A stretch of DNA of 64,000 nt from a virus (lineage: Duplodnaviria; Caudoviricetes). This document shows positions 3,201-62,591 of this stretch, piece by piece. Made by a program: the position numbers and the translations under genes. Within the stretch, counting starts at the first letter, position 1. Each line of letters starts with the position of its first letter. The stretch is from IMG/VR virus record IMGVR_UViG_3300022173_000064, positions 624-64,623 of that record, one strand, 5' to 3'. The notes beneath the pieces were generated by a model, which saw only the letters and a program-made list of their open reading frames with translations, had not been told where the DNA came from and made no database searches.

Positions 3201-4188
3201 CGGATCGGGCTACAGCGCGGGCACCACGGCGACCGTGGTCGACGATAACGGGCTCGGACCCGGCACCGGCGCCGTGGCAAGCGTGACCGTGGTCGCCGGC
3301 GTCATCACCGCTATTACCTTCCCCACGCCCGGCGCTGGCTATGTCAGCCCTGAGTTGGTCATCACCGATCCGGCCGGCAGCGCTGGGGGCACCGGGGCCT
3401 CGGCGGACGTCGTATTGAGCAACGTCGCGACCTTTACGGCCAGCGCCAGCGTGTTCGTGGTCGGCGATATCGGGCGCGTCATCCGCATGGGCGGCGGGGT
3501 CGCCACGATTACCGCGCGCACCAGCGGGACCGTCGTCACCGGCCAGCTTACCAGTCCGATTCGGACCGTCATTCCGAACAGCGGCGGCACCGCGGCGCCG
3601 GCCGCGTCGGGCACATGGACATTGAGCACCCCGACGACCACCGTTAGCGGCCTGTGGCCCTTGGTCGGCGCCACCGTGACCGGCATTGCCGATGGTGTGG
3701 AGATCGATCCGCAGGTGGTTTCCGCCACCGGTACGATCACGCTGGACGTCGCAGCCAGCCAGATCATCGTCGGCATGGCGTTCCTGCCCCAATTGCAGAG
3801 CGTCTACCTCGATGCCGGCGAGCCGACCGTTCAAGGGCAGCGCAAGAAGATCGCCGAAGTGACGGCGCGCGTGCAGGCGTCAGGGGATTTCACGATCGGG
3901 TCGAACCAGCCGGACGGATCGGTGCAAAGCCCGATGCAGAACGCTCCTCGATGGCAGAATATGACGGACGCGCCGAACCCGGCCAAAAATCCCTACAACA
4001 GCCGGACCAAGCCCCTGTTCACCGGCGACATCCGCATTCCGGTCCAGGGCGGCTATCAGAAGCCAGGGCAGGTCGCGATCGAGCAGCCGCATCCGTACCC
4101 GCTGCAGATCCTTGCGTTTATTCCTGAGGTATTGTCGGGCGACAAGCCATCGCAGGCGGCGCCGGAGAAACGAGGTCGCAATGGCTGA
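247..4188 (+). CDS. Tail tubular protein B / nozzle (T7 gp12, P22 gp10-like) with FCCH-like and Gly/Thr-rich inserts
   Basis: N-terminal QTAFVTGEVSP and RGGAYSRAGT, central YPGVVAYFQQRRFY, C-terminal VNGWSRH, FESVC, QPHPYPLQIL motifs; precedes internal virion genes. True start may be ATC at 235. Confidence 0.85.
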   Translation: MIQTAFVTGEVSPALFGHVDLVRMHAAASTMRNLWPSYRGGAYSRAGTEFVGFSKQTGRAYPPRMIPFQFSINQGLALEFGNYYMRVIFDGGYVTEAPYIISGATQANPCVLTVTATSSLDSVTPINSAVSASYVQGDTISLAGGTFSTRAVVTVGQTLLSSVAINARGQGYNGGEIITLSGGSAVARASVQVVTTRVVAVDPVPKYVGAGGTPGAAVLTGTTGTGTKFQVNVTIGGLGNITAVGSIVAVGSYTANPSTGTFGASTDTMSGGGFGDPPILGLAMEIATISIVNPGQYLTNSATFTQFSTTGSGTGATFQTVIFGVYNATVTTAGNYTVLPTNPVAQFATSGTGAGVTLTASWLSSPTLSTGDWVYVDDVGGMTQLNGRTFVASVSGSNISLFDVYGNQINSSAYGAYTSGGTASRIYTLATQYSEVDLRWIKFTESADTMSLCCVNQSTGTEYPPVDLSRSSDTDWAFTPAVPVPSISPPTGTSLSASTQPASPTTDAGYSYVVTAIADDGTESIASNIGSLADVINIGSTAGTIYVSWSGSVGANEYFIYKATPSVNKSGSGTGIPSSGALFGYVGSAYGQTFFDTNIVPDFSQVPPLHRNPFARGQILAVRTTAGGSGYTSAPTVTINTFTGGGAVILPIVQSGAVVAYIVKDNGSNYAPTDTVTISGGGGASATATLTIGAQTGTYPGVVAYFQQRRFYAYTLNQPDTYFASQPGAFNNFDRRIPTIDSDAFDGTPWSVQVNGIQFMVPTSGGLVVLTGLEAYFLTGQGGSAFTPQPVTPSSQSAVPQGFNGCSATVPPIRIYQDVLYVQAKGSKYRDFAFNMNQNTYTGDDITENSAHLFDGHTIEEHAWCEEPYRLLWAVRSDGILLCDTWVKAEKVNGWSRHDTFGTFESVCSVTEPPVDALYCATQRLIGSNTAYVVERMNDRLWKTAEDPWCVDCGLSYAQDEPDATLVASSSTGLGSLTGVTNLVGGSGYSAGTTATVVDDNGLGPGTGAVASVTVVAGVITAITFPTPGAGYVSPELVITDPAGSAGGTGASADVVLSNVATFTASASVFVVGDIGRVIRMGGGVATITARTSGTVVTGQLTSPIRTVIPNSGGTAAPAASGTWTLSTPTTTVSGLWPLVGATVTGIADGVEIDPQVVSATGTITLDVAASQIIVGMAFLPQLQSVYLDAGEPTVQGQRKKIAEVTARVQASGDFTIGSNQPDGSVQSPMQNAPRWQNMTDAPNPAKNPYNSRTKPLFTGDIRIPVQGGYQKPGQVAIEQPHPYPLQILAFIPEVLSGDKPSQAAPEKRGRNG

Positions 4189-15298: not shown

Positions 15299-15389
15299 GA
15301 TGTGACATATACAGCACACGGGGCCCGTCAACTATGGCATGGACGTTGCGAGATGCAGGCTATGCCAAGATGCGGGGCAAGTCCTGATC

Positions 15390-16634
15390 ATGGCGCGCCT
15401 CGCAAACTGCCTTGTTACGTTGCGCGCCCAGATCGACGCTCGCTGGCCGAACCGCAGCAAGTCTAACGATGGATGGATCGGAGACGCGGATCATCAGACG
15501 CGCCCGTCAGACCATAATCCGGGCGATGACGGCGTTGTCGAGGCAATCGACGTCACGCACGATCCGGCCGGCGGGTTCGACAGCTACGTGTTCGCGGAAT
15601 TGCTGCGCAACAAGCGTGATCGCCGTATCGAGTATGTGATCTCGAACGGGCGCATCTTCTATGCTGGCGGCGCGATGCCGTGGCAGTGGCAGAGCTATTC
15701 GGGCGCCAGCCCGCACACGGCGCACGTCCATATCTCCTGTCAGCCTTCAGCCTCGGTTTATGACGACGCATCGGCGTGGGACATCGAGAGTGCGCCGGAG
15801 CGCCCCGGCGTGCATCGCGGCATCGTGGCGACGTATTTCGGCGGGCCGTCCGACGCCATGTCAGGAACCAAGACTGCCTATGGAAGCCTGATTGCGCCGG
15901 GCTGGTGGGACCGTCCAGGCGTTGCCCTGCCGGCGCGCATCAACGACCGTCCATTGCCGTTGGTCAGGGTCACCTACAACGGCAAGTCCGTCATCTGCCC
16001 GGTGATTGACGTGGGTCCATGGAACACCAAGGATCCGTACTGGGCATCCGGAACACGGCCGCAAGCGGAGACCGGCTTCGATATGACCGGCCGCAAAACC
16101 AACCTCGCCGGCATCGACCTCACACGAGCAGCAGCCAATGCCATCGACCTTCCCGGAAAGGGATTGGTTGATTGGGAATTCATAAAGGAAAACGGAATGT
16201 CTGAACCTACCGACGATCTGGTCACGCAAATTCAGAGCCTGCGGGCCGAACTCGCACAGTTGCCGGCCGCTATCGTGGCCGCGCTCAAGGGTACTGCGCC
16301 CGCGCCTGTGCCACCTTCCGCGCCGCTACCGCCCGATCCAGCGCCATCGCCTGTTCCGCCGGTGGTGGTGGTGCCGCCCTCGACAACACCGATCCTCGAA
16401 AAGCCGGGCGTCGGCTTGGGCGTACTCGGCGCTATCCTGACTGGAATACTGAGCAGTTCCGGCTACATCGGGCCAGTGACGGGCGAAGAAGCTGCGTCTA
16501 CGGGGCAGCTGCCGCTACTCATTTCGGCCGGCGTTGCCGCCTTGGGTGCGACTGGCATGTTTGGATCATGGGGCACTGCACTGAAAGCCGTCGGGCCGCT
16601 ATTGGTGAAGCTGCTGGGAGGCAAGCCGCAGTGA
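15390..16634 (+). CDS. Endolysin: M15/LAS-like peptidase + RlpA-like DPBB domain + C-terminal hydrophobic helices
   Basis: GWIGDADH..SDHNP..AIDVTH..HTAHVHIS; then ATYFGG..VICPVIDVGPW..GIDLTRAAA; Pro-rich linker; two hydrophobic segments at the C-terminus. Confidence 0.8.
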   Translation: MARLANCLVTLRAQIDARWPNRSKSNDGWIGDADHQTRPSDHNPGDDGVVEAIDVTHDPAGGFDSYVFAELLRNKRDRRIEYVISNGRIFYAGGAMPWQWQSYSGASPHTAHVHISCQPSASVYDDASAWDIESAPERPGVHRGIVATYFGGPSDAMSGTKTAYGSLIAPGWWDRPGVALPARINDRPLPLVRVTYNGKSVICPVIDVGPWNTKDPYWASGTRPQAETGFDMTGRKTNLAGIDLTRAAANAIDLPGKGLVDWEFIKENGMSEPTDDLVTQIQSLRAELAQLPAAIVAALKGTAPAPVPPSAPLPPDPAPSPVPPVVVVPPSTTPILEKPGVGLGVLGAILTGILSSSGYIGPVTGEEAASTGQLPLLISAGVAALGATGMFGSWGTALKAVGPLLVKLLGGKPQ

Positions 16635-17994: not shown

Positions 17995-18384
17995 ATGCGG
18001 CTTTTTCTGGCTGTGGTTATGGCTTACTCCGCCATGATAGGCGTCATCAACGCCAGCACCTTCGGTGATCTTTGGCTAACCAGAATCAAGCCTGAGCCGC
18101 ACGGCGGGATAGCTACCCAATTCACAGACCGGATCGGGGCATGGGGAAACCGGATCAAGCCAGGGTCTTTTGTCTGCGCTCACCTTCTTGAACCACGAGG
18201 CCAGCGCCTGCGCGTGACCAATATCGCGAATGGCCGATCGGCCGTCTGCGAAGTCCAAGACCGTGGTCCGGATCGGCACAAAAGGTTTTGGCCCCGCCGC
18301 GAAATCGACATGACGCCAGCGGTTAATCTGGCGATAGGTTGCGGGGGGTATTGTCGCGTAACGATCGAGAGGATGAAGAAATGA
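17995..18384 (+). CDS. Secreted RlpA-like DPBB lytic transglycosylase-like protein
   Basis: Signal peptide; CAH..LRVTNIANGRSAVCEVQDRGP..REIDMT RlpA signature. Confidence 0.7.
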   Translation: MRLFLAVVMAYSAMIGVINASTFGDLWLTRIKPEPHGGIATQFTDRIGAWGNRIKPGSFVCAHLLEPRGQRLRVTNIANGRSAVCEVQDRGPDRHKRFWPRREIDMTPAVNLAIGCGGYCRVTIERMKK

Positions 18385-44670: not shown

Positions 44671-45426
44671 ATGCCAAGAATCCCGCCCGTAAAGAAGCCG
44701 GTCAATATCTCTGGGCGCAGGTTCGGCGCCCTTGAGGCGATTGATTATCGTGTCACCGACAATAAGTGGCGGTGCCTATGCGATTGTGGGAATGAGGTTT
44801 ATCGACGATTTTGCGATCTCAATTCCAACATTCGGCGCGGCAGTCGAAATAGCTGCTCCAAATGCGGAGTGCGAAAACCAACCCGAGGGTCAACAGGGTG
44901 TAAATTCCCCGGGCGCGGAATTGACCTCGTGGGCCAAGAGTTCGGCCGGCTTACTGTCGTTTCTCTTATCGAGAGAACTCCGAGCGGGTCGCTATGGCTT
45001 TGTGCCTGCTCCTGTGGCAGCGAGGGCCACGTAAAGAGAACGACCAGCAATCTGAAAAATACATCCGAGCCTGGATGTAAGGATTGTGAAACCGAGCGCC
45101 GGGCGGCAGCCAAGGTAACGCACGGGGGGGCTCATAAAGGCGTTACGCGTCTTTACTCAATTTGGAAGGGAATTCTTAAACGGTGTCGCGACATGTCTAA
45201 CCCGCACTACGGCGGAAAGGGCATCAAGGTTTGTAGGGAGTGGGAAGATTTTCCAACTTTCCGCGCTTGGGCTCGTGCGGCTCGTTACGACAACACCCTC
45301 ACAATCGACCGGCTCGACCCTTCCAAAGGATATATGCCGTCAAATTGCGAATGGGTGACACAAGAAGAAAACTCCCGGCGCGTCTATCATCCTCGTATCC
45401 TTGATATGAATGGAATTCGCGCATGA
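44671..45426 (+). CDS. Freestanding HNH homing endonuclease
   Basis: Two GxxFGxL..WxCxCxCG repeats; RLYSIWKG..RC; TIDRLDPSKGYMPSNCEW; lower GC. Confidence 0.8.
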   Translation: MPRIPPVKKPVNISGRRFGALEAIDYRVTDNKWRCLCDCGNEVYRRFCDLNSNIRRGSRNSCSKCGVRKPTRGSTGCKFPGRGIDLVGQEFGRLTVVSLIERTPSGSLWLCACSCGSEGHVKRTTSNLKNTSEPGCKDCETERRAAAKVTHGGAHKGVTRLYSIWKGILKRCRDMSNPHYGGKGIKVCREWEDFPTFRAWARAARYDNTLTIDRLDPSKGYMPSNCEWVTQEENSRRVYHPRILDMNGIRA

Positions 45427-47252
45427 ACGCCCCGGTTCTCGAAAAGGACGTGGCCGCCGCGACGCCGGCTTATATCCAAATGGGCCCGTCGCTTCTGGCG
45501 CAGCAGCCGGTGACGACGCAGACGAAGATCGACGCCAACCCCGATTTCAAGTGGACGACGATATTCTCCCACCTCGAGGCGCGGCTGGCTTCGCTCCGAA
45601 CCTGGCGCTATTCGTGGTGGGCGTATTGGGCCCGGCTCGCAGAGTTTTTCAACCCGCGGCGCTATCACTGGCTCGTTGTGGCCAACCGCATGTCGCGCGG
45701 CAACGCCCTCAACGACGCGATTATTGATTCGACCGGCTTGCTCGCGGTCGAGACCTGCGCCAGCGGCATGTGGACCGGCCTCACCAACCCGGCCCGGCCG
45801 TGGATCAAGATGGAGAGCGGCCTGCCGTGGGTGAAGTTGGACGCCGACGGCAAGGAATGGATCGAGGACACCGAGCAGCGGCTTTACACGGTGCTGGCAC
45901 AGTCCAATTTCTACACCGTGCTCGCCCAGGCGTTTCAGGATCTGACGGTGTTCGGCACGGCGCCGTTCGTGATCTATGAGGATTTTGAGGACGTCATCCG
46001 GCTTTATCTGCCGTGCGCGGGCGAATACTATCTCGGGACCGGGGCGCGGCTGTCGGTCGATACGTTCTATCGGGAATTCACGTTCACGGTCGCCCAGATC
46101 GTGGAGCAGTTCAAAGTCGCGAATTGCCCCGAGCAGGTAACGAACCTGTGGAACACCGGCGGATCGTCGCTGGACCGTGAATTTGTGGTCGCCCACGCGA
46201 TCGAGCCCAACTTCGCGCTCACCGAGCGGGGCACCAACAAGACCGTGCGCGTGGTGCCGGGATCGTTCATTTACCGGGAGGTCTACTGGCTCAAGGGCAT
46301 CCAGACCGCGCGGCCGCTGAGTGTGGCGGGCTTCCGGACCAAGCCGTTCATGGCTCTCCTGTGGTCCAGGGTCTCGAACGACGCCTATGGCCGGTCACCG
46401 TGCATGGATGCGCTGGGCGATTCGAAGCAGGTCCAGCTGGAGACCAGGCGCAAGGCCGAATTCATCGAAAAGCTGGTGCGGCCGCCGATGGGCGCCAATC
46501 CAGAGATGAAAAACGAGCCGTCGTCGATCGTGCCGGGCAACATCACCTATACGAACACCGAGGGCACCAAGAAGGGCTTTTGGCCCCTGTTCGAGGTGGC
46601 GCCGGCCGCTCTGGCCCCGATGGTGCAGGATATAGCCCAGGTCAACGCGCGGATCGAGAAGGCGCTATTTGTCGACGTGTTCATGGCCATTACCCAGATG
46701 CAGGGCGTACAGCCGCGGAACGAGCTCGAATTGACCAAGCGCGACCTCGAGCGCCTGCAGAAGCTGGGCCCGGTCATTACGCTGGTCGAGGAGGAGCTGC
46801 GCCAAGCCCTGACCCGGATTCTGGACATCATGGAGCGGCGCCGGATGCTCAAGCCGAAGCCGGCCGCGCTCAAGGACGTGCCGCTGCGGATCGACTTCCT
46901 GTCCTTGATGCGGATTGCCCAGCGATCGGCCACGGCGGTTTCGATGAAGGACTTCATGGCCACGATGGGCGGCATGTCGAGCGCGGCGAAGGCGGCCGGC
47001 ATCCCCGATCCGCTGCGCAAGGTGAACCTGGACAAGACCGCGGAGAAGTTCGCCGACGTCACCAATTTCCCGTCCGATTGCCTCTACACCGATGATGAGG
47101 TGAAGGAACACGACAAGATCAGGGAGCAGGCCTCGCAGGGTGCGCAGGCTCCGGAGCAGATGACCGCGGCCGTGAACGCTGCCAAGACCCTGAGCGAGAC
47201 GAACACCGGCGGCCAGACGGCGTTATCGCAGCTGCTCGGGACGCCTCAATGA
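45423..47252 (+). CDS. Portal (head-to-tail connector)
   Basis: IIDSTG..ASGMWTGLTNPARPW, QSNFY, YGRSPCMDALGD..LQ, LERLQKLGPV, LAQRS motifs of T7 gp8/BPP-1-type portals. Confidence 0.92.
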   Translation: MNAPVLEKDVAAATPAYIQMGPSLLAQQPVTTQTKIDANPDFKWTTIFSHLEARLASLRTWRYSWWAYWARLAEFFNPRRYHWLVVANRMSRGNALNDAIIDSTGLLAVETCASGMWTGLTNPARPWIKMESGLPWVKLDADGKEWIEDTEQRLYTVLAQSNFYTVLAQAFQDLTVFGTAPFVIYEDFEDVIRLYLPCAGEYYLGTGARLSVDTFYREFTFTVAQIVEQFKVANCPEQVTNLWNTGGSSLDREFVVAHAIEPNFALTERGTNKTVRVVPGSFIYREVYWLKGIQTARPLSVAGFRTKPFMALLWSRVSNDAYGRSPCMDALGDSKQVQLETRRKAEFIEKLVRPPMGANPEMKNEPSSIVPGNITYTNTEGTKKGFWPLFEVAPAALAPMVQDIAQVNARIEKALFVDVFMAITQMQGVQPRNELELTKRDLERLQKLGPVITLVEEELRQALTRILDIMERRRMLKPKPAALKDVPLRIDFLSLMRIAQRSATAVSMKDFMATMGGMSSAAKAAGIPDPLRKVNLDKTAEKFADVTNFPSDCLYTDDEVKEHDKIREQASQGAQAPEQMTAAVNAAKTLSETNTGGQTALSQLLGTPQ

Positions 47253-50873: not shown

Positions 50874-51920
50874 ATGGCGACCGGTTCTTGGCCCACCATT
50901 GCAGACGTAGCGAGCCGTTCGGACCCGACCGGCAAGCCGAAGATCATCGCGGAAATGCTTTCGCAGTCCGTGGCGCTGGCCAAAGACCTCTACATGGTCG
51001 AGGCGAGCGAGTTCGGCGGTCACGAATTCGTGTTCCGCACGTCGATCCCGGCCGGCTCTTGGCGCCAGATCAACCAGGGCGTCCCGTACAGCAAGTCGAC
51101 CACCGCGAAATCCCGCGTCGGCCTCGGCACGCTGGAGGATTATTCGCAGGTCGATCGGCTGCTGGCCGAAATGACCGGCGACGTCGAACGGTTCCGTGAA
51201 ACCGAGGACGTGGCCTTCCTGGAAGGCATGGGCCAGACCATCGAACAGACCACCTGGTACGGCAACACCGCCGCGACCCCGGCGGAGTTCATGGGTCTTT
51301 CGACCTTCTACAACACCCTGACTGCGGCAACTGCGCAGAACGGGCAGAACGTGCTCAATGGCGGCGGCGTCGGATCGTCGAATGCGTCGATCTGGCTGCT
51401 TTGCCACGGTGCGCGCACCTTCCATGGCCTCTATCCCCGCAGCTCCAAGGCTGGCCTCGCGATGGAGGACAAGGGCGACACCGTTCCGGGCTATGATTCG
51501 CTCGGCAACCGGTTCGAGGCTTACACCTCATGGTTCCGGCAGATGATCGGCATCGTCCCGATCGACTGGCGGTATTGCGCCCGCATCGCGAATATCGACG
51601 TCACCACCGCGGGCCTGGCCGGGCCGAACGCCTACGACATCTTCGCCGGCCTGCGCCAGCTGATGCTGCTGCCGCCGACCCTGACCTCCGAATCGTCCGC
51701 CATCACCGAGACCGATGCGCCCGACGAGCCGGCGCCGGGCATCCGCCCGGTCATCTACTGCAACCGCACCGTCCGTCACTGGATGGACGTGCAGGCGATG
51801 CGCGACCGCAACGTGCTGCTGACCATCAACGACTATGCGGGCAAGCCCGTGACCGGCATCAACAATATCCCGGTCAAGGTCTCGGATCAGCTGCTCATCA
51901 CCGAGGGCGCGGTTTCCTGA
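50874..51920 (+). CDS. Major capsid protein (HK97 fold, BPP-1 Bbp17-like)
   Basis: FRTSIPAGSWRQINQGV..SKSTT, ETEDVAFLEGMGQ, DWRYCARIANID, IPVKVSDQLLITE. Confidence 0.88.
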   Translation: MATGSWPTIADVASRSDPTGKPKIIAEMLSQSVALAKDLYMVEASEFGGHEFVFRTSIPAGSWRQINQGVPYSKSTTAKSRVGLGTLEDYSQVDRLLAEMTGDVERFRETEDVAFLEGMGQTIEQTTWYGNTAATPAEFMGLSTFYNTLTAATAQNGQNVLNGGGVGSSNASIWLLCHGARTFHGLYPRSSKAGLAMEDKGDTVPGYDSLGNRFEAYTSWFRQMIGIVPIDWRYCARIANIDVTTAGLAGPNAYDIFAGLRQLMLLPPTLTSESSAITETDAPDEPAPGIRPVIYCNRTVRHWMDVQAMRDRNVLLTINDYAGKPVTGINNIPVKVSDQLLITEGAVS

Positions 51921-53675: not shown

Positions 53676-53981
53676 ATGACCGCATCTACTGGCCAAATCA
53701 AAACCTCCCCCGTGGTCGTCAGCGGGTCGATCCCGTTCGATGGTGGCCCGCAGGTGAGCGCCGTCAACGCCAACGGCGGGACGTTCACAGCCAACAGCGG
53801 GACGCCCGTCACGGTGACAAACTCCAATATCACGGCAGATTCCGTGATCTGGTTCGGCCTCAAGACCCCGGGCGGCACGCCGGCGGCACCGTTCCAAGTC
53901 ACGGTAACGCCCGGGACCGGGTTCACCGTCAACAGCGGCGGTAGTGACACATCGACTTATAATTACGTCATCTTCGGCTGA
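53676..53981 (+). CDS. Small fibre-tip-like beta protein
   Basis: VTVTNSNITADSVI..TPGTGFTVNS..DTSTYNYVI resembles tail-fibre terminal domains. Confidence 0.55.
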   Translation: MTASTGQIKTSPVVVSGSIPFDGGPQVSAVNANGGTFTANSGTPVTVTNSNITADSVIWFGLKTPGGTPAAPFQVTVTPGTGFTVNSGGSDTSTYNYVIFG

Positions 53982-54009: not shown

Positions 54010-54492
54010 ATGAAGAAATTCGCTCTTATCGCCGGTGCCGCGCTGGCAGCCTTCGCGGCCAGTTTTGCGGTGGCGCAGACCATCAGCGTCCCGAAGGTGG
54101 CCATCATCGGCCCTACCGATCTGATCCAGGTGCTCCCGGGCGGCGTGCCGTCGGCGCAGAGCAAGTACGCCTACCCGAATCAGATCACGTCGCAGATGGG
54201 CTACCAGAAGAAATCGCCGGCGACCGGTTTCACCTACAGTTTCGGCAATTCGGACAGTCTGATCGCCCTGAGCCATTCGACCACACTGGCCTCCGGCACG
54301 ATCACGTTCGCGGCGGCGCCGTCGGACGGTGCGCAGGAGTGCATCTACGCGCAGAACATCGTCACCACGCTCAACCTGGCGGCCGGCGCCTCGACGCAGA
54401 CCATCGTCAACGCGGTGACCACGATCGGCGCCGCGGCGCAAGTCTGCTATCTCTACTCGCTGTCGGACCAGACCTGGACCCGATCGCATTGA
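54010..54492 (+). CDS. Signal-peptide-bearing beta-rich virion-module protein
   Basis: MKKFALIAGAALAAFAASFAVA|Q; two Cys; AGGAGG SD. Confidence 0.65.
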   Translation: MKKFALIAGAALAAFAASFAVAQTISVPKVAIIGPTDLIQVLPGGVPSAQSKYAYPNQITSQMGYQKKSPATGFTYSFGNSDSLIALSHSTTLASGTITFAAAPSDGAQECIYAQNIVTTLNLAAGASTQTIVNAVTTIGAAAQVCYLYSLSDQTWTRSH

Positions 54493-55682
54493 GTTGGCTG
54501 GCCGCCCATAGGGTCGGGGTCTGGGCTTTCCTGGTTACGGTTGCCTTCGTCCCCGGCATTATGTCAGCGGCCATCGTCCCGCGATGGGCAGTCATTGCCC
54601 TTGGAATTCCGCTGGTGTCGCAGATCAGGTGGCAGATACCGACCGGGCTTCAACTCGCCGTCGCCGCGGGCGTGGCGTGGTCGGCGGCATCGATCATCCA
54701 CGCGCCGGATCAACTGGACAGCCTGCTCCAGTTCTTTTTCATGCTGTGCCTGATCTGCGTGATGGGCGTCGCATCCCAAGTCGACGACCTGACCGAGGCC
54801 TTGTCCGGCATGTGCTGGGGGCTTGGGCTTTCGTCCTTGGTATGCCTCATCGCATGGCGCCACGGGCACTTTCTGGCGACGTCCCACCCCGAGCTATTCC
54901 CCGGACTGTTCTACAATGCCGAGGTGCTGGTTGAGCTCTGCGCGCCGTTGCTGGTTTGGGCGGCGGTGACGCGCCGGTGGCATTTCGTGGCGATCGCCGC
55001 GGTGCCGATCCTGCTCAACAACTCCCGAATCCCTATCGTCGCCGTCATGATCGGGCTGATGTTCGCGTTCTGGCCGAAGGATTGGCGCGCGCGCCTCGCT
55101 CTCGGCATGGCTGGGATCGTGCTGGCGTGCTCCGTAGTGGCCTACATGACCTTCGGCCACTTCAAGCTGGGCAGCGCGGCGGGGCGAATTGTGTCGTGGC
55201 TCACCGCGGCCTATGCCATCACGCCGTCCGGCCAGGGGTTCGGCTGGTTCCGGGCGACGCACGGTGGCGACGAATTCGCCCATAGCGACATTCTCCAGGC
55301 ATTTGCGGAGATCGGGATCGGGGCGCTACTTTTTGCGCTGATTCCGGTCTATGCTCTGCGAAACAGGAGGGCTCATGCCGAGCGCGCCGCATTTGTCGTC
55401 ATCTGCACGGAATTGGCGGTTTCTTTCCCGATCCATGTCCCTGCCACGGGATTTCTGGCAGCCCTACTTGCGGGGTATCTGGTTCGTGATCGCCTTGGCG
55501 TTCGCGGGCTTCAATATGGCGGCCGAGATTCGGTTGGCGATCGCGATGGATGGTATCCCGCGGCTGCCGGAGCAGTTATTGGCGGAGGTCGACGGCGCAG
55601 TTTCTACCTTCCCCTTGGACCTGAGGCTGAGGAGTTATCAGCGGTGGGTCTATCGGGAAGTCGCGCGGCGGGAGCAAGATAA
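54489..55682 (+). CDS. O-antigen ligase / Wzy_C-like polytopic membrane protein
   Basis: About 10 hydrophobic segments; NSR, GRIVSW, GQGFGWF, AHSDILQAFAEIGIG motifs; TTGA and TAATG couplings to neighbours. Confidence 0.75.
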   Translation: MSWLAAHRVGVWAFLVTVAFVPGIMSAAIVPRWAVIALGIPLVSQIRWQIPTGLQLAVAAGVAWSAASIIHAPDQLDSLLQFFFMLCLICVMGVASQVDDLTEALSGMCWGLGLSSLVCLIAWRHGHFLATSHPELFPGLFYNAEVLVELCAPLLVWAAVTRRWHFVAIAAVPILLNNSRIPIVAVMIGLMFAFWPKDWRARLALGMAGIVLACSVVAYMTFGHFKLGSAAGRIVSWLTAAYAITPSGQGFGWFRATHGGDEFAHSDILQAFAEIGIGALLFALIPVYALRNRRAHAERAAFVVICTELAVSFPIHVPATGFLAALLAGYLVRDRLGVRGLQYGGRDSVGDRDGWYPAAAGAVIGGGRRRSFYLPLGPEAEELSAVGLSGSRAAGAR

Positions 55683-55858
55683 TGCCGACCGTATCGCCAA
55701 AGCAGGGGAAATTCATGAGGGCGGTAGCCCACAACCCTGAATTTTCGGCAAAGACTGGCGTTCCGCAGTCGGTAGGCAAGGAATTCGTGGCCGCAGACAA
55801 GGCGGTAGGCAAGAAGCGGATGCGGGATCTGTACCGGGGAAAGGGTCAGAAGGACTGA
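55682..55858 (+). CDS. 58-aa basic protein (below ORF-track cutoff)
   Basis: MPTVSPKQGKFMRAVAHNPEFSAKTGVPQSVGKEFVAADK..RMRDLY; fills the gap exactly. Confidence 0.7.
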   Translation: MPTVSPKQGKFMRAVAHNPEFSAKTGVPQSVGKEFVAADKAVGKKRMRDLYRGKGQKD

Positions 55859-55859
55859 A

Positions 55860-56339
55860 ATGGACCTCAGCACTTCGATGAAAGCCGCATTGGCGGAAAC
55901 GTGGGTTTGGGGCTTTAAGTCCCACGTTTTTCATTGGAATGTGCGCGGACCGATGTTTTCCCAATATCACGAGTTTTTCGGGGATATCTACAAGGACGCG
56001 GATGGCGCCGTGGATGATCTTGCGGAGCAAATCCGGGCACTGGATGAGGCCGCCCCGAGTTCGATCGATGAGATCACCGGTCCGGCGAGGATCATTTTTT
56101 CCCACGCTGACGACGCCGAACAGATGCTCGAGCAATTGTCGTCCGACAACAAGACGGTCATTGATGCCCTGACCGCGGCGCAGACCTCCGCCGAGGAGGC
56201 TGGGAAGAAGGGGCTGGCCAACTTCCTCCAGGATCGCCTCGACAAGCACGCGAAATGGGGCTGGATGCTGACGGCCTACACCAAGAAGGACGACGCGCCC
56301 CCGCGCCGCATGCGCAGCCTGTATCGAGCGAGGGCATGA
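55860..56339 (+). CDS. dps: Dps / ferritin-like protein
   Basis: HVFHWNVRGPMFSQYHEFF..DDLAEQIRAL..HAKWGWML ferroxidase-centre motifs. Confidence 0.88.
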   Translation: MDLSTSMKAALAETWVWGFKSHVFHWNVRGPMFSQYHEFFGDIYKDADGAVDDLAEQIRALDEAAPSSIDEITGPARIIFSHADDAEQMLEQLSSDNKTVIDALTAAQTSAEEAGKKGLANFLQDRLDKHAKWGWMLTAYTKKDDAPPRRMRSLYRARA

Positions 56340-56542
56340 TGGCCGACTGGATCAAAAAGGGAGCCAAGAAGCATCCCGGGCTTTTCCGGCGCAAGGCCGA
56401 GGCCGCCGGCGAGACGACGCGCCAGTTTGCGGCAGAGCACAAGGATTCGCCCGGGAAGCTGGGGAAGCAGGCCCGTTTCGCGATCAATGCGATGGGCGCG
56501 GCCAAGAAGCACCGATCGAAGCTCTACAACCACAAGGATTGA
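56336..56542 (+). CDS. Small basic protein
   Basis: WIKKGAKKHPGLF..GKLGKQARFA; ATGA coupling. Confidence 0.6.
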   Translation: MMADWIKKGAKKHPGLFRRKAEAAGETTRQFAAEHKDSPGKLGKQARFAINAMGAAKKHRSKLYNHKD

Positions 56543-56546
56543 GGCC

Positions 56547-56948
56547 ATGGCCGAAGACAAGAAATCCCGCCGCAGCGTTATGTACGACAAGGGCAAGAAG
56601 CCCGAACCGAAGGCCGAGGAGAAGAAGCCCGCGGCACCGGCGGAGCCTGCTGCGCCCGCATCTGCCGATCCCGCCAGCGCCGCGCCGGCCGCGCCGAACA
56701 TGGGCGAGACGCAATCCAAGGCCCGCACCGAGCTCCACAAGCGCCACGAGGGCGAGCGGAGGGACTTCCATGGCAACCAGCGCGACGCTCTCCGGAAGAT
56801 GGTCGCGAGGCACGACAAGGAGATCAAGGCGCTCCAGGTGGCTCATGAAGCCGAGATGGCCGGCGCTGCGGCAGTGCCTGGCGAGGGTAATGCGGCGGCG
56901 GCCGAAGGGGCTGGCGCGGTGTCTGCGGCTCCTCCGGCGGAGGCGTGA
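56547..56948 (+). CDS. His-rich coiled-coil hypothetical protein
   Basis: GAGG SD; LHKRHEGERRDFH..ARHDKE. Confidence 0.55.
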   Translation: MAEDKKSRRSVMYDKGKKPEPKAEEKKPAAPAEPAAPASADPASAAPAAPNMGETQSKARTELHKRHEGERRDFHGNQRDALRKMVARHDKEIKALQVAHEAEMAGAAAVPGEGNAAAAEGAGAVSAAPPAEA

Positions 56949-56949
56949 G

Positions 56950-57291
56950 ATGTTCACCAAGCTCGTAGACATGGAATTGGACGACGAGGAGAAGGTGGAC
57001 TTCTGCGCGCCGATCGCGTGCGCGATGCCCGATTTTCCCTACGGTCTGCGTCTGTGTCTTTCGGAAAAGGAACTCAAAAAGCTGGGCTTGCCAGTTCCCG
57101 AGGTTGGCGACTATCTTGATCTGCGCGCGTTCGCCTGCGTCAAGTCCGTTTCCTGTGATTCAAACGACAGGGGCGAGACCTGCCGGGTGGAATTGCAGAT
57201 CGAGAAGATCGCGGTTGAAAACGAGGACGATGAACCCGAGGAGATCAAGGATGCCCCCAGACGACGTTTATCTTACGGACGCTCAGGTTGA
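56950..57291 (+). CDS. Capsid staple-like protein
   Basis: FPYGLRLCL..LKKLGL..VGD..VELQIEKI pattern. Confidence 0.6.
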   Translation: MFTKLVDMELDDEEKVDFCAPIACAMPDFPYGLRLCLSEKELKKLGLPVPEVGDYLDLRAFACVKSVSCDSNDRGETCRVELQIEKIAVENEDDEPEEIKDAPRRRLSYGRSG

Positions 57292-57430
57292 GCAGATCGC
57301 CCAACGGGTGGTCGCGGTGATCGTGAAGAAGATGACCGCGCCGGATTGGCGCACCGACATCGAGCGCGAGGCGGATGAGCAGGCCGCTCTGGCGCGGTCT
57401 GAGATTGCTCGCAGGGCTATTTCCCAATGA
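57251..57430 (+). CDS. Hypothetical protein
   Basis: Overlaps upstream gene by 41 nt; ATGA coupling downstream. Confidence 0.4.
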   Translation: MPPDDVYLTDAQVEQIAQRVVAVIVKKMTAPDWRTDIEREADEQAALARSEIARRAISQ

Positions 57431-57918
57431 GGCGCATCGCGATCATTCTTGCCGCCATCGCAATCTGGATGCCCGCCGCGGCGTTCGGCCAGAACGCCTT
57501 GCTGCAGGGCGGGAGCTGGACGCTGGGGCGCTTGCCGGCCTATGTCACCCAAGGCGGCCAGCCGATCGTGGTAGACAGCGGCCCGGCTCGAGGCGGCAGT
57601 GTCGGCACCGGCGTTTCCGAGATCGGGATGATCGCGCGCGGCACTGGAGCGGCGCCGTACAGCGGGCAGGCGACCGGCGCATTCGGCTCCGCGTTCTGCA
57701 TGTATGACGCGCCGATCGACAACGCGACCGGATACCACTACCTCTGCCTCTCTCCAAACGCGACCGGAGGGAAGGCCCTGATATCGGTCGGCGCCGTCGG
57801 CGCGAGCCCAATCGGTCTGAATTTCAACATTGACGGTACGTCCATCGTCGGCGTGACGTGCTCGGGCACGCCCACGAGCAGTTTTGCAACGGTGAACGGC
57901 ATCGTCACCCACTGCTGA
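57427..57918 (+). CDS. Signal-peptide protein paralogous to tailspike N-terminus
   Basis: MRRIAIILAAIAIWMPAAAFG|Q; LQGGSWT, DSGPA, FCxYDAP..NATGYHYxC shared with 57930. Confidence 0.7.
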   Translation: MRRIAIILAAIAIWMPAAAFGQNALLQGGSWTLGRLPAYVTQGGQPIVVDSGPARGGSVGTGVSEIGMIARGTGAAPYSGQATGAFGSAFCMYDAPIDNATGYHYLCLSPNATGGKALISVGAVGASPIGLNFNIDGTSIVGVTCSGTPTSSFATVNGIVTHC

Positions 57919-57929
57919 GGGTGCATCAC

Positions 57930-60900
57930 ATGCTGCGGATTGCTGCGGGCCTGCTGGCCCTTCTGGTTTCGTCGGCCGCGTTTGGCCAAGGCACCGTCTT
58001 GCAGGGCGGCAGCTGGACGGCAGGCCGAGCCCCGATGTACGTCGGGACCGGATCCGGCCAAGCTGTTGTACAAGATTCGGGTCCAGCCGGCGGCGGCACT
58101 ACGGGGCTCGGCCTCAAGGAATTGCTCCTGACGGCCCGCGGCACCGGCACCCCGCCCTTTGTGGCGCAGGGGACCGGCCCAGGCGGGACGAACTTCTGCA
58201 ATTACGACGCCCCGACAACGAACGCGACGGGATACCATTACATTTGCATGAGCCCGAACGCCACCGTTGCGGGCGTCACGGGGTCGATCATTACGGCCGG
58301 ATCTGGCGGAGCGACGTCCGCGGTCCCGCTGTATCTTTGCTCAAACGGGACGTGCGTCACCCCGAGCGGCACTATTGCCGGCCTCACGGTCGGCACCACG
58401 ACCATAGCCGGCGGCGGCAACGGTGGCGTGCTTTACGACAACTCCGGAATTCTGGGCGAAGTAGCGGCGCCATCCGTCGCATTGAGAATGATGCAGTCGG
58501 GAGCGAGTGCGGCCCCGAGTTATTCCACGTCGACATGGCCGGCGACCACGACGATAAACCAGATTTTGTATTCCAGCGCCGCGAACACGGTAAGCGGCCT
58601 CGCCACGCAAGCCAGTTCCATATTGGTCACGGATGGCTCTGGCGTTCCGTCGCTTTCGACTACCGCTCCGAGCGGAATCAACTTTCCTCTGACTGTCGGC
58701 ACAACCACAATCGCCAGCGGCACATCGTTGGGGATGCTCTACAACAACGCGGGTGTTCTCGGGAACACCGCGTCTCTCGCAAATGCGGTTCTCGTCACGA
58801 ATGCGTCCAGCGTTCCGGCCTTCTCCACGTCGATTCCGAGCGGCGTCGTGGGGAACGCTCTCGGATGGTACATAGTCGGGTCGGCTGAGTACCCTACGGC
58901 AGCATCAGCTATTACAGCTGCGAATACCGCGGGTGGTGGCATCGTATACTTTCCTTGCAAGCCCCCTATCAATTCAACCATTTTACTTGGGTCTGGAGCT
59001 ATTGGCCTCGATATGCGCAACATGCGCAATGTGCGGTTGATCGGTGGGGCGAGTCTCAATTCTGGTGGTTCGATTTGCACCTATTTAAGTTACACTGGTA
59101 CAGGTACAGCCATTGATATTTCAGGCTCTACCGGTACTGAAATCGCAGGGCTTGAAATATGGGGACAATCTGCTGATTACGTTATTCGTGCGTCAGGTGC
59201 TACGCAGGCGGCTTATGCGCGAATCCACGACAACACGATCTTCGGCAAGACCACTGCGACAGGCATCGGTATCAGCTTCGACAATATCATTGTCTCGTCG
59301 GTTACCTCGAACGTAATTAACGCATACATCGGCATGCGCGGCATTGACTCGGTCGGTGCTACTCATACCTCCAATGTCATCCAGATCGAAAAGAATTCCT
59401 TCACTTCAGGCAACACGATCCATCTCCAGAACGCCACCCTTTGGAGCGTAGACAAGAACACCTTCACAGGCAGCGTCTCTGGTGTTGCTTACGGACAATC
59501 AGCAGGCGTTGCCGGATGTTCTATAATCAATTTCAGCAACAACGACTTTGATGATCCACAGGCTGGTACGCTGCTTATCAACACCGACTGTAAGCAAGTA
59601 AACAGTTGGGGCAATGTCTTCTCGACCATGGCTGGCGGTACGGTCTTCACCCTCACTGCCGGCACCGATGCGGTACTGAAATCCGATGGTGATTATTACA
59701 ACCTCAGCGGCACCGGCATTAATATCAACACAGGAAACTGTGCCCAACTAATCAACCCACGACTGCATGCATTGGTATCCCCAGCGATTGCTGGGACGCA
59801 AGGCTGCACCCAAACGAATCTGATCTACCAAAACTCTCAGCAATCGGGTATTCACTACGGAAACCTGAACACCGCATCACCACCGACGGCTGTTACGGGC
59901 ACTATGTTGCAGCTTAGCCAAGCTGATAGTGTGTCGACACGCCTTGGAATGTACGCCTTTGGCACGGCAAATGCTGGCGTGCTGGATATGTATAAATCCC
60001 GTGGGACTAAGGCGGCGCCTACAGCAGCACAGACTGGTGATGCTCTTGCTGCATGGATTGGCACCGGTTATGGTGCGACCGGTTACGGTGCAGCCTCTGG
60101 TGCAATCCAGATGTCGGCCGCCGAGAATTTCACCGACACCGCCAAGAGCTCCTATTGGGGAATTTTCACTGCCACCACCGGCGCGACAACCTCTGTAGAG
60201 CGTATGCGCGTAGGTCAGGGAGTTGCGATTCCAGCATCTGTCACCGGTGGTGACAAAGGCGCTGGCACGATCAACGCGACCACGATTTACCAAAACAACG
60301 TTGCGCTGGGCGCGCTGGCAACGGTCACACCTGGAACCGGTGTAGCGACGGCGCTCGGCGTGAATGTCGGTACTGCTGGATCGTTTGTGGTGAATGGCGG
60401 TGCCCTTGGCTCACCGTCATCAGCAGGTACGCTCCCCGCCCATACTCTGGGCGGGACGATCTCCGGCGGCGGAAACCAGATCAATAACGTCATCATCGGT
60501 ACGTCAACGCCACTCGCTGGCAGTTTTACGCAGCTTGGTGCCACTACTCAGATGCTGGTGGGAAACCAGAGCGCAACCGACACCATTTTGACGGTCAACG
60601 CCAACAACGGAACCCCGGATACGGACTCGTTCGGCACTAACATTGCGCACTTCATATGCCCAGACACTACGTTGTGCGGCATTTTCATGGATAGTTACGG
60701 CACTTCTGCAAGCCAAAATTTCTTGGCCAGTCGCATGGCTGGAGGGACAAGAGCATCAAAAACTGCACTAACTGCGGGAGCGGGATTTAGCTTCTTCGCT
60801 CAAGGTTGGGACACAGCTGCTTACGGGTCGATGGGGGCAATTGATATTCTCGCCAATGGCACTCAAAGCCCAACAGACCACGCTGGATACGTGCAGATAA

Positions 60901-61166
60901 GAACGGTCCCGACCGGTTCCACCACCTTGACGTTCTCCGCCCGGTTTCACCCAAGCGGAGGGCTGTCTATCGGCACGTCATCGGACCCCGGTACTGGTAT
61001 GATCTACACCAATGCCGCGACCTTCATGCATCGCACTAAAACATCATGGACCAATGGCGCCGCCGCTGGCGCTGGCACGATCACCAACGCTCCTTCAGCC
61101 GGCAACCCAACAAAATGGATACCCGTCGATGACAACGGCACGACTCGTTACATTCCTGCTTGGTAG
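57930..61166 (+). CDS. Tailspike / tail fibre with beta-helix depolymerase-like region and N-terminal signal peptide
   Basis: MLRIAAGLLALLVSSAAFG|Q; SAITAA..GGIVYFP start of a pectate-lyase-like beta-helix, Asn-ladder repeats, fibre repeats; more AT-rich codon usage. Confidence 0.8.
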   Translation: MLRIAAGLLALLVSSAAFGQGTVLQGGSWTAGRAPMYVGTGSGQAVVQDSGPAGGGTTGLGLKELLLTARGTGTPPFVAQGTGPGGTNFCNYDAPTTNATGYHYICMSPNATVAGVTGSIITAGSGGATSAVPLYLCSNGTCVTPSGTIAGLTVGTTTIAGGGNGGVLYDNSGILGEVAAPSVALRMMQSGASAAPSYSTSTWPATTTINQILYSSAANTVSGLATQASSILVTDGSGVPSLSTTAPSGINFPLTVGTTTIASGTSLGMLYNNAGVLGNTASLANAVLVTNASSVPAFSTSIPSGVVGNALGWYIVGSAEYPTAASAITAANTAGGGIVYFPCKPPINSTILLGSGAIGLDMRNMRNVRLIGGASLNSGGSICTYLSYTGTGTAIDISGSTGTEIAGLEIWGQSADYVIRASGATQAAYARIHDNTIFGKTTATGIGISFDNIIVSSVTSNVINAYIGMRGIDSVGATHTSNVIQIEKNSFTSGNTIHLQNATLWSVDKNTFTGSVSGVAYGQSAGVAGCSIINFSNNDFDDPQAGTLLINTDCKQVNSWGNVFSTMAGGTVFTLTAGTDAVLKSDGDYYNLSGTGININTGNCAQLINPRLHALVSPAIAGTQGCTQTNLIYQNSQQSGIHYGNLNTASPPTAVTGTMLQLSQADSVSTRLGMYAFGTANAGVLDMYKSRGTKAAPTAAQTGDALAAWIGTGYGATGYGAASGAIQMSAAENFTDTAKSSYWGIFTATTGATTSVERMRVGQGVAIPASVTGGDKGAGTINATTIYQNNVALGALATVTPGTGVATALGVNVGTAGSFVVNGGALGSPSSAGTLPAHTLGGTISGGGNQINNVIIGTSTPLAGSFTQLGATTQMLVGNQSATDTILTVNANNGTPDTDSFGTNIAHFICPDTTLCGIFMDSYGTSASQNFLASRMAGGTRASKTALTAGAGFSFFAQGWDTAAYGSMGAIDILANGTQSPTDHAGYVQIRTVPTGSTTLTFSARFHPSGGLSIGTSSDPGTGMIYTNAATFMHRTKTSWTNGAAAGAGTITNAPSAGNPTKWIPVDDNGTTRYIPAW

Positions 61167-61380
61167 TCTTATCGTCACTTCGGCTGCGGCGCAGACGCAG
61201 CCGCCCGACGCGGCATTTATGCAGCGCGCGGTGTCTGCATTGCAGGCGCAGCGGAACGCGGCGCAGGACGCGGCTGCAGTAGCGGAGGCTAGGGCGGCGG
61301 GGTTGGCGGATGATCTCGTCAAAGCGCGCGCGCGCATCAAGGAACTTGAGCCAAGCCCGGCCGAAAAGCCCAAGGAGTGA
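61129..61380 (+). CDS. Signal-peptide coiled-coil protein (fibre chaperone candidate)
   Basis: MTTARLVTFLLGSLIVTSAAA|Q then heptads ALQAQRNAAQDAAA..LVKARARIKEL; directly after tailspike. Confidence 0.6.
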   Translation: MTTARLVTFLLGSLIVTSAAAQTQPPDAAFMQRAVSALQAQRNAAQDAAAVAEARAAGLADDLVKARARIKELEPSPAEKPKE

Positions 61381-61383
61381 CTG

Positions 61384-61971
61384 TTGACCTCTCTCACGTC
61401 GACCGACGTCGTTAACCAGGCAATCAACATCATCGGCAACGATATTCCGCCGGTGACGGGGGTTGCGCCGACGTTCGACGACTCGACGGCGGGGAAGGCG
61501 GCGCAGCAACTCTATGGGCTGTGCGTCAACGCGGTCGGCAGGCAATTCGGGTGGGACTTTGCGCGCAACCAGGTGACGCTCACGGCGTCGGGAAACGTCG
61601 CACCGTTCCCCATGGGTTTCATCGGGGAATACCTCTACCCGACGAACGGCATCCAGGTTTGGCAACTGTTCGGCGATCTCGCGGCGGTGGGGGTGGATGC
61701 GAACAACCCCACTCCGGCGAATTGGTCCGTCGGAAATACGCTGGTGACCGGGGTCCAGAAAAAGGTCATCTGGACGAACATCACGGCACCGCGGGCGATC
61801 TACAACAACGCTCCGAACGAGAGCACATGGGATCCGCTGTTCCAGATGGCGGTGGTTCGCCTGCTGGCGAGCGCGATGGCGATGGCGATCGCCGGGAAGC
61901 CGGATGTGGCTCAATCCATGTTGGAGTCGGGAAGTGCGTTCGAATCACTCGCTGAGAGCCGGGAGGATTAG
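61384..61971 (+). CDS. Tail tubular protein A / adaptor ring, paralog 1
   Basis: DVVNQAI..IG, WDFA, EYLYP, WDPLFQMAVVRLLAS. Confidence 0.75.
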   Translation: MTSLTSTDVVNQAINIIGNDIPPVTGVAPTFDDSTAGKAAQQLYGLCVNAVGRQFGWDFARNQVTLTASGNVAPFPMGFIGEYLYPTNGIQVWQLFGDLAAVGVDANNPTPANWSVGNTLVTGVQKKVIWTNITAPRAIYNNAPNESTWDPLFQMAVVRLLASAMAMAIAGKPDVAQSMLESGSAFESLAESRED

Positions 61972-61973
61972 CC

Positions 61974-62591
61974 GTGGCATCCGTCATCACAACGGTCCCG
62001 GACGTCGTAAACCTTGCCCTCGCCGGCATCGGGCGCCGGGACCGCATTGCTTCGATTTACGAGGGCTCGGCGGCTGCTAAAGCCGCTCTGGACATCTACA
62101 GCCAGACCCGCGACGAGATGATGCGGACGGTCGACTACGGCTTTGCCGAGCGCAACGTGAACCTGACCGTGCTCAAATGGGCCAATGCAAACGGCTATTT
62201 CCCGCCGAACCAGTGGGACGGGACGTTGAACCCGCCGCCGGGCTGGCTGTTTTCGTACACCTATCCGACCGACTGCCTGAAGGTCCGCGCCATCAAGGCG
62301 CAGCCCCTTTTCCCGCTCAATTACGATCCTCAGCCGGTGGTTTTCAAGATCGAAAACGACAATTATTACACCCCGGCCCGCAAGGTGATCCTGTGCAATA
62401 TCGAGAGCGCGCAGATGGTCTACACGGGCCAGGTCACCGACCCGTCGACATGGGAGGCTTCATTTACGGAAGCCTTTGCGGCAGAGTTGGGACGGAGATT
62501 GGCACCAGCGTTGGCCACCATGGACGCAGCCAAATTTTCCGCAGCGGTTGCGGCTAAGGCCACGGACGAGGCTGATCGAACAGAGGGGTAG
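61974..62591 (+). CDS. Tail tubular protein A / adaptor ring, paralog 2
   Basis: DVVNLALAGIG, YGFA, YTYPTDCLKVR, WEASFTEAFAAELG. Confidence 0.8.
   Translation: MASVITTVPDVVNLALAGIGRRDRIASIYEGSAAAKAALDIYSQTRDEMMRTVDYGFAERNVNLTVLKWANANGYFPPNQWDGTLNPPPGWLFSYTYPTDCLKVRAIKAQPLFPLNYDPQPVVFKIENDNYYTPARKVILCNIESAQMVYTGQVTDPSTWEASFTEAFAAELGRRLAPALATMDAAKFSAAVAAKATDEADRTEG

Follow-up and report, generated by a model that had tools for sequence, protein, structure and literature searches.

The closest known analogue of the phage proteins described here is the group of mosaic adhesive trimer (MAT) surface fibers of Bdellovibrio bacteriovorus (PDB 8oml, 8onf, 8ol4 and 8ond; Caulton et al. 2024, PMC10769870). 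The exported and signal-anchor-release (SAR) endolysins of phages, such as fOg44 Lys44 and P1 Lyz, take the Sec route before lysis and are kept outside the cytoplasm up to the moment of holin triggering (PMC6116005), Porphyromonas phages encode signal-bearing proteins of unknown function (PMC10367356), and WceF of Pantoea is an exported trimeric beta-helix with the tailspike fold that trims exopolysaccharide (PMC7949094). Here, we analyzed the genome of an uncultivated tailed phage from IMG/VR (IMGVR_UViG_3300022173_000064), a single record of 64,623 bp; bases 624–64623 of it form the window of 64,000 nucleotides to which positions refer. Four genes within 54010–61380 encode proteins with predicted Sec signal peptides: a small fiber-like protein (SP160), a stand-alone copy of the N-terminal domain of the spike (SP163; hereafter the N-domain), the long spike itself, and a coiled-coil partner (SPcc). 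A preliminary description of the sequence had pointed out these signals, and our analysis confirmed the observation. Comparison with relatives strongly supports export; attachment of the exported proteins to particles at lysis strikes us as an evenly balanced proposition, and a role confined to the host envelope as a rather unlikely one.

The four signal-bearing open reading frames (ORFs) were found on the plus strand at the starts listed in Table 1. Each begins with K or R, continues through 10–15 uncharged hydrophobic residues to a small-x-small motif, and then reads Gln, thereby showing the charged n-region, uncharged core and small −3/−1 residues of a Sec signal cleaved by signal peptidase I. 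The proposal that Gln opens every predicted mature chain was borne out in all four. SP160 is preceded by a strong ribosome-binding site (AGGAGG, 7 nt upstream) and the spike by GAGGG 9 nt upstream; the ATG of SP163 overlaps the stop codon of the preceding ORF, and SPcc starts 38 nt inside the 3′ end of the spike gene with no clear Shine–Dalgarno sequence. Downstream true starts, named earlier as something that would speak against the signals, were checked for, and no in-frame alternative start keeps the conserved mature N-terminus. By our own crude heuristic, signal-like N-termini occur in 4 of 11 genes within 54010–61380 vs 2 of 70 elsewhere (Fisher p = 0.003). Such heuristics gave false positives and too-early cleavage sites; we therefore worked from alignments and from the residues that precede the invariant Gln, and judged export from comparative tests on relatives rather than from a trained predictor. 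Searches of the four proteins against Pfam, PHROG and NCBIfam returned weak coiled-coil noise at most. A Tat signal was rejected: R-R occurs only in SP163, without the rest of S/T-R-R-x-F-L-K, and relatives have K-R, K-K or a single K/R.

A profile search with the spike N-domain retrieved 941 clusters at 50% identity, and signal features were counted in the best 149 of these. An invariant Gln opens the N-domain in 145 of the 149 representatives, at a median position of 23, and is preceded in 144 of the 145 by K/R and a hydrophobic core whose own sequence is not conserved in the family. Directly before this Gln lies a cleavage site with Ala at −3 in 126/145 (87%) and A, G or S at −1 in 142/145 (98%). 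The same A-x-A/G-then-Gln form is also shared by 59 viral and 4 genomic N-domain loci. In 6 of 180 family members, a lipobox (L-A-A-C-S or L-I-A-G-C) substitutes for the peptidase I site; because the replacement of one export signal by another is expected only for exported proteins, this swap supports export. Among the lipoprotein-type fibers, the metagenomic proteins P0029, P0179, P0196, P0232, P0260 and P0294 (258–778 amino acids, aa) carry the signal L-A-A-C-S-S-Q-A-P-A-Q, in which A-P-A before Gln is kept. Fibers of this type may be membrane-anchored or twice processed.

Paired Cys residues had been reported in three of the four proteins, and the predicted mature chains indeed hold 2 (SP160), 4 (SP163) and 12 (spike), with none in SPcc. 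They lie at residues 111 and 146 of SP160 and at 91, 107, 145 and 163 of SP163, and those of the spike form six near-neighbor pairs (90/106, 137/142, 343/383, 530/554, 604/626 and 910/916). The FCxYDAP...HYxC motif noted earlier proved real, C91 and C107 each being at least 90% conserved across 47 relatives, and the Cys count is even in 135 of the 145 N-domain representatives. We then compared 119 relatives of the spike body, mosaics that carry the tail-fiber Pfam domains Collar, Peptidase_S74, Pectate_lyase_3 and K1-lyase_C. The median Cys content per 1000 aa was 10.4 in the 56 relatives with a signal vs 2.6 in the 63 without (p = 1e-12), and non-zero even counts were found in 54/56 and 26/63, respectively (p = 2e-11). 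A conserved C-terminal ...WIPVDDNGTTRYIPAW was rejected as an export mark, being equally common with and without a signal (14 and 14).

The N-domain family has an invariant Gln at +1, which is also present in almost all parsed SP160 homologs, in 8/8 signal-bearing SPcc-type partners and, by eye, in ~20 of 27 further N-terminal classes among signal-bearing fibers. For a host comparison we used Rhizobium sp. BK313, which carries a related prophage; just 4 of its 18 periplasmic binding proteins have Gln at this position (p = 0.0009 vs the fiber classes). A published 'Q-rule' is described as specific to Bacteroidetes (PMC5837995). Given the host counts and this restriction, the bias seems to belong to these proteins and not to the host, and it would fit a protective pyroglutamate on long-lived extracellular proteins.

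The preliminary description also had the putative coiled-coil chaperone exported with the spike, and here the genes behind fibers in other phages provide support. SPcc homologs that bear a signal follow fiber genes in loci L066, L067, L068, L069, L074, L079 and L096, and homologs lacking a signal do so in L071, L072, L073 and L076. The status of the partner equals that of its fiber in every case (signal 8/8, window included; none 4/4; p = 0.002, or 0.005 with three close relatives merged), the partner calls in L076 (hidden Markov model E = 0.04) and L096 (E = 5.7) resting mainly on position and on sequence read by eye. These phages include a podovirus with an SU10-type adaptor (L066) and a siphovirus with a Phage-tail_3/Rcc01698_C tail protein (L067). 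SPcc is a candidate exported coiled-coil partner and fiber chaperone. Its first 12 codons (61129–61166) are the other frame of the conserved fiber C-terminus (V-D-D-N-G-T-T-R-Y-I-P-A-W); the overlap in L074 and L096 is as in the window, and L066, L073 and L079 start at a stop-overlapping ATGGTGA. An i-spanin identity was set aside: SPcc stays beside fiber genes in four phage types, and the lysis genes of this phage lie at 15.3–18.6 kb. Taken together, the A-x-A/Gln conservation, lipoprotein swaps, Cys statistics and co-switching of the partner support the Sec signals and periplasm-pointing Cys pairs proposed at the outset, and the four proteins are very probably exported via Sec.

Membership of these genes in the virion module, likewise proposed, is supported by synteny in 65 related loci, where the N-domain gene lies between a Gp10-like head-region gene and three gp11-like genes. 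As far as the contigs reach, the order is Gp10-like (PF21628), N-domain, gp11a/b/c and gp12, with gp11-like genes directly downstream of the N-domain gene in 58/65. Gene junctions in the signal-gene region are overlaps or gaps of 3–28 nt, and promoter- or terminator-like sites there are not above chance. Coupled genes, chance-level promoters and terminators, and fixed positions in more than 60 related phages do not fit the moron or exclusion-lipoprotein type (Cor, Llp, Lom), which was rejected. In 22 loci covering the whole region, inspected by eye, almost all accessory fiber-like proteins between the cement and gp11 genes carry signals, including those with Peptidase_S74 or K1-lyase_C; the capsid, cement, small basic and gp11-like proteins mostly do not, the few heuristic flags among them being probable false positives. 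Of 201 genomes from the family of Rhizobium sp. BK313 (Rhizobiaceae), one contains the N-domain, and there it is the prophage itself; the N-domain family therefore belongs to phages rather than to cells. Its fibers have a conserved N-end and a mosaic C-end, and the C-terminal modules are common to signal-less fibers of other phages. This complete genome holds no other fiber candidate, signal-less ones included, and no match to PF03906 or PF13884 (S74). A conventional fiber at the T7 gp17 position, after gp16, was rejected, the ORF there (15339–16634) being lysin-like.

We next considered the architecture of the spike. Behind the signal (residues 1–19) come the N-domain (~20–135), fiber repeats (~136–300), a predicted beta-helix (~300–630; 58827–59819), a low-confidence fiber stretch and a tip (~900–1078; 60627–61163). 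An AlphaFold2 model had a predicted local distance difference test score (pLDDT) of 55 overall and was confident at the beta-helix, where residues 300–630 form stacked short strands (pLDDT 60–94), and at the C-terminal domain (900–1030). In Foldseek searches, the beta-helix matched PL6 lyases and tailspikes weakly (E = 0.02–0.5), and the tip matched the Bdellovibrio MAT tips Bd1334 and Bd2439 (E = 2e-6, root-mean-square deviation 2.4 Å over 128 columns) as well as the tip of the T5 L-shaped fiber. Homologs of the spike carry PF12708 and PF13229, and a phmmer search of PDB sequences with the spike gave no match. The label 'tailspike' for this protein is only moderately supported, by a beta-helix and a fiber-tip fold in a model of low confidence. 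Its last ~70 residues are near-identical in fibers of unrelated phages, with and without signals. The G+C content of the spike by codon position is 0.52/0.58/0.61 (57858–61166) vs a third-position G+C content (GC3) of 0.78–0.86 in neighboring genes, and 58–60 kb is the lowest G+C stretch of the late operon; the low GC3 suggests recent horizontal acquisition of the spike gene. For SP163, 30 homologs were found, always just upstream of gp11-like genes or of a long spike. The AlphaFold2 model of SP163 and its N-domain (pLDDT 81) shows a helix (2–19) followed by a beta-rich domain; no significant fold match was found for it by Foldseek (PDB, BFVD) or in a wide VIA search (every Z < 3), nor any similarity to the N-domain of T7 gp17 (hhalign probability 0.1).

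SP160, for which Pfam, PHROG and NCBIfam gave no match, has 30 distinct homologs in related phages, and all of them keep the signal. Gln at +1 and the motif QxxxVPQV..DLxQ are visible in most (24 were parsed with Gln at +1), exactly two Cys occur in 23/30, and the long forms reach 406–475 aa. Its stop codon is overlapped by the gene for a multi-pass membrane protein with a Wzy_C match that falls under the curated cut-off (Pfam E = 2.9e-5). A Wzy_C-like gene directly follows SP160 in 14 related loci (12 plus L068 and L069) and is missing from L001 and L002; its product may polymerize or ligate O-antigen, or it may be a transferase of the PglL type that works on exported Ser/Thr-rich fibers. On the other side of SP160 lies p101, which has neither signal nor Cys in this phage and in L069, and whose homologs in L002, L006, L017 and L060 bear an N-terminal signal or anchor. 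The K1-lyase_C family therefore has both compartment forms within one phage lineage. The position of p101 is held elsewhere by signal-bearing proteins of 274–333 aa, in L001 (with Peptidase_S74), L015, L023, L050 and L059.

The genome is T7-like in layout with a head of the epsilon15/BPP-1 type (Table 1). CheckV estimated its completeness at 100%, and no tyrosine integrase was found in it. The gp11-like tail paralogs match phrog_394 'tail protein' at E = 6e-16 to 1.7e-31 and are the likely docking region for fibers. The nozzle is covered to just 57–63% by relatives from isolated phages, and ~500 of its residues form extra domains (weak E1_FCCH match). Internal virion proteins of 190, 816 and 2481 aa are followed by a lysin-like and a holin-like ORF. 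In the lysis region, 17995–18384 encodes a further candidate for export, a 129-aa protein that combines an RlpA-like domain (NCBIfam E = 2e-7) with a hydrophobic N-terminus. A Dps/ferritin-like gene (55860–56339; Pfam Ferritin E = 1e-19) sits within the structural operon and is not present in the close relatives L068 and L069. Record bases 1–130 recur near the record end, inside the third gp11-like gene; no exact terminal repeat was found, and the recurrence resembles the overlap that assembly of a circular or terminally redundant genome would leave. The capsids of the nearest isolated phages are at most 39% identical, and none of these phages has the four signal-bearing proteins. A tblastn search of the spike and SP160 against 50,697 phage records and a megablast search of the signal-gene region gave no match.

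Table 1 Coordinates of the signal-bearing genes and of other features in the window
Feature	Position	Strand	Length	Details
SP160, small fiber-like	54010–54492	+	160 aa	Predicted signal 1–22 (54010–54075), A-V-A then Gln23
SP163, stand-alone spike N-domain copy	57427–57918	+	163 aa	Predicted signal 1–21 (57427–57489), A-F-G then Gln22
Spike	57930–61166	+	1078 aa	Predicted signal 1–19 (57930–57986), A-F-G then Gln20
SPcc, coiled-coil partner	61129–61380	+	83 aa	Predicted signal 1–21 (61129–61191), A-A-A then Gln22
p101, K1-lyase_C domain protein	53676–53981	+	101 aa	Pfam PF24146, E = 1.7e-10
Wzy_C-type (O-antigen ligase/polymerase) multi-pass membrane protein	54489–55682	+		Overlaps SP160 stop
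Portal (Head-tail_con)	45423–47252			Followed by scaffold
Capsid	50874–51920			Pfam GP7, E = 2e-92; followed by Bbp16-type cement, then the signal-gene region
gp11-like tail paralog 1	61384–61971	+		phrog_394 'tail protein'
gp11-like tail paralog 2	61974–62591	+		phrog_394 'tail protein'
gp11-like tail paralog 3	Starts 63254, continues past window end			phrog_394
gp12-like nozzle	247–4188		1313 aa

The reading we favor, without rating it above an even chance, is that the exported fibers dock onto particles at lysis. SP160, SP163, the spike and the coiled-coil helper would form a fiber and spike module that is exported by Sec and cleaved by signal peptidase I at A-x-A/G, directly before Gln. 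In the periplasm, the fibers would fold, trimerize and undergo oxidation of the DsbA type, with an N-terminal pyroglutamate being probable, while heads and tails are built in the cytoplasm. Before lysis, the exported enzymes may trim the host's own surface glycans. Once holin, endolysin and spanins merge the compartments, the fibers would join finished particles in the lysing cell or in the lysate. In this scheme, cleavage, disulfides, tail docking and timing are what we infer. Late docking is physically plausible, as T7 and P22 attach their fibers or spikes in a final, separable step of assembly that can be reproduced in vitro. The evidence leans toward joining of the virion at or after lysis over action on the host surface, since the N-domain keeps to one tail lineage and no further fiber is encoded in the genome. 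Docking is argued for most strongly by the contrast between the N-domain, which stays within this tail lineage throughout, and the C-terminal modules, which move freely. Signal-bearing fibers of other types were also found in unrelated podo- and siphoviruses, and the N-domain family comprises at least 941 clusters. A broader proposition, to which we give somewhat less than an even chance, is that in many tailed phages, and widely, receptor-binding fibers and their chaperone are exported by Sec, oxidized, capped with pyroglutamate and added at lysis, with the MAT fibers as domesticated relatives.

Several points weigh against docking. Tailed-phage particles assemble in the cytoplasm, and in the literature we found no published account of Sec-exported tailed-phage fibers or of periplasmic fibers joining particles. 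Lipoprotein variants would stay membrane-anchored and fit poorly with incorporation into particles, SP163 is an N-domain protein without a receptor-binding part, and the extra ~500 residues of the nozzle could contact the host themselves. The MAT proteins of Bdellovibrio use the same architecture for display on the cell surface (PMC10769870). In addition, virions of phage Milano contain many disulfides without any signal peptide (PMC10811340), and Cys alone would therefore not suffice to argue for export. Finally, the close relative L068 (2433–3266; Logan SRR14271362) has its SP163 homolog joined in frame to the end of the Gp10-like head-region protein: neither the stop codon nor the small gene in between nor the initiator Met is present, and the hydrophobic segment lies internally after K-K-R-R-S-R-L-Y-G-R. 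A true fusion, a misassembly and gene decay are all conceivable origins.

An alternative, which we consider rather unlikely, is that the proteins are exported and never enter the particle. They would serve either as factors in the periplasm or on the infected cell's surface that destroy or mask the receptor, blocking superinfection and keeping progeny off debris, or as MAT-like surface fibers, with the enlarged nozzle binding the host. Export itself, which is well supported, is common to this explanation and to docking, and the lipoprotein variants, the protein consisting of the N-domain alone, the nozzle larger by ~500 residues and the coupling of a Wzy_C-like membrane protein to SP160 in 14 loci all speak for the envelope role. 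So do the spike tip, with its match to MAT tips, and the MAT layout of signal, 130-aa beta-rich N-domain, fiber and tip, which is alike and surface-displayed (PMC10769870). However, an anchor for the host envelope should spread as the C-terminal modules do, and the N-domain is confined to one tail lineage. Moreover, the genome has no signal-less fiber copy left for the particle, the genes are translationally coupled in the late structural operon, unlike morons, and the proteins have no obvious outer-membrane route.

Two further explanations concern the N-terminal segment itself. It might remain uncleaved and act as a membrane tether in the style of SAR endolysins, with the fibers released when the holin collapses the membrane potential. 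Phages do use such tethers (PMC6116005), some relatives have hydrophobic N-termini of 25–30 residues (a 305-aa protein in L001 and a 133-aa protein in L006), and the L068 fusion places the hydrophobic segment internally. Nevertheless, we regard a tether as improbable: small residues at −3 (87%) and −1 (98% of 145), exactly before an invariant Gln, are needless for an uncleaved anchor, the hydrophobic cores are short (10–15 residues), and lipobox swaps imply processing. Even if uncleaved, the body of the protein would be periplasmic. An annotation artifact, in which starts lie downstream or hydrophobicity arises by chance and the fibers are ordinary cytoplasmic ones, would draw on the abundance of Ala, Leu and Val codons in G+C-rich genomes such as this one, on the SPcc start inside the spike gene without a Shine–Dalgarno sequence, and on the crude signal heuristic with its false positives. 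It is very improbable, because the conserved domain begins at Gln right after the hydrophobic stretch with no in-frame start beyond, these features are kept across hundreds of diverged relatives, neither the Cys signature nor the co-switching of the partner depends on the start call, and such N-termini occur in just 2 of the 70 other genes. Docking at lysis remains the reading we prefer.

If true, the export of fibers would depart from the textbook picture of all-cytoplasmic tailed-phage assembly. Were it routine, attachment would become a step during or after lysis, and Sec, signal peptidase I, DsbA, lysis timing and burst size would all bear on infectivity. Disulfide-stabilized, pyroglutamyl-capped fibers would then be a source of robust binders and depolymerases to be expressed in the periplasm rather than the cytoplasm, and anyone predicting host range or engineering phages would have to treat fiber, signal peptide and exported chaperone as one unit. 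An origin would also be offered for the MAT surface fibers of Bdellovibrio.

Finally, we compared the module with known systems. T7 gp17, P22 gp9 and the K1F/K1-5 spikes with their adaptor proteins resemble it in their place among structural genes, conserved N-end, exchangeable C-end and a beta-helix body, which is predicted for the spike here, and SP163 beside a long spike recalls adaptor-plus-spike systems. Classical podovirus fibers differ in having no signal, folding in the cytoplasm and being poor in Cys, and the N-domain here does not resemble that of T7 gp17. T4 gp57A and similar proteins are small helical coiled-coil chaperones for fiber trimerization, gp57A not being encoded beside its fiber and others being so encoded. 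By description, SPcc is like them in following a fiber gene and sharing the compartment of the fiber; to our knowledge, no tail-fiber chaperone carries a signal peptide. The Sec-exported endolysins share late phage export by Sec and differ in being lysis enzymes rather than fibers. T5 Llp, Cor and lambda Lom/Bor are likewise exported proteins encoded beside receptor-binding genes, but Llp, Cor and Lom are small non-fiber proteins, often with their own expression signals, whereas the proteins here are of fiber type, coupled to the late operon and include the sole spike. WceF differs as a bacterial Tat substrate, the phage proteins here being Sec-type. The MAT fibers come nearest, with a signal, a ~130-aa beta-rich N-domain without a known structural homolog, a trimeric fiber and an exchangeable tip or S74 chaperone, a likeness of layout and tip fold. 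MAT genes are chromosomal genes of a predatory bacterium whose products are displayed on its own surface, whereas the genes described here stand in a phage structural operon beside tail genes.

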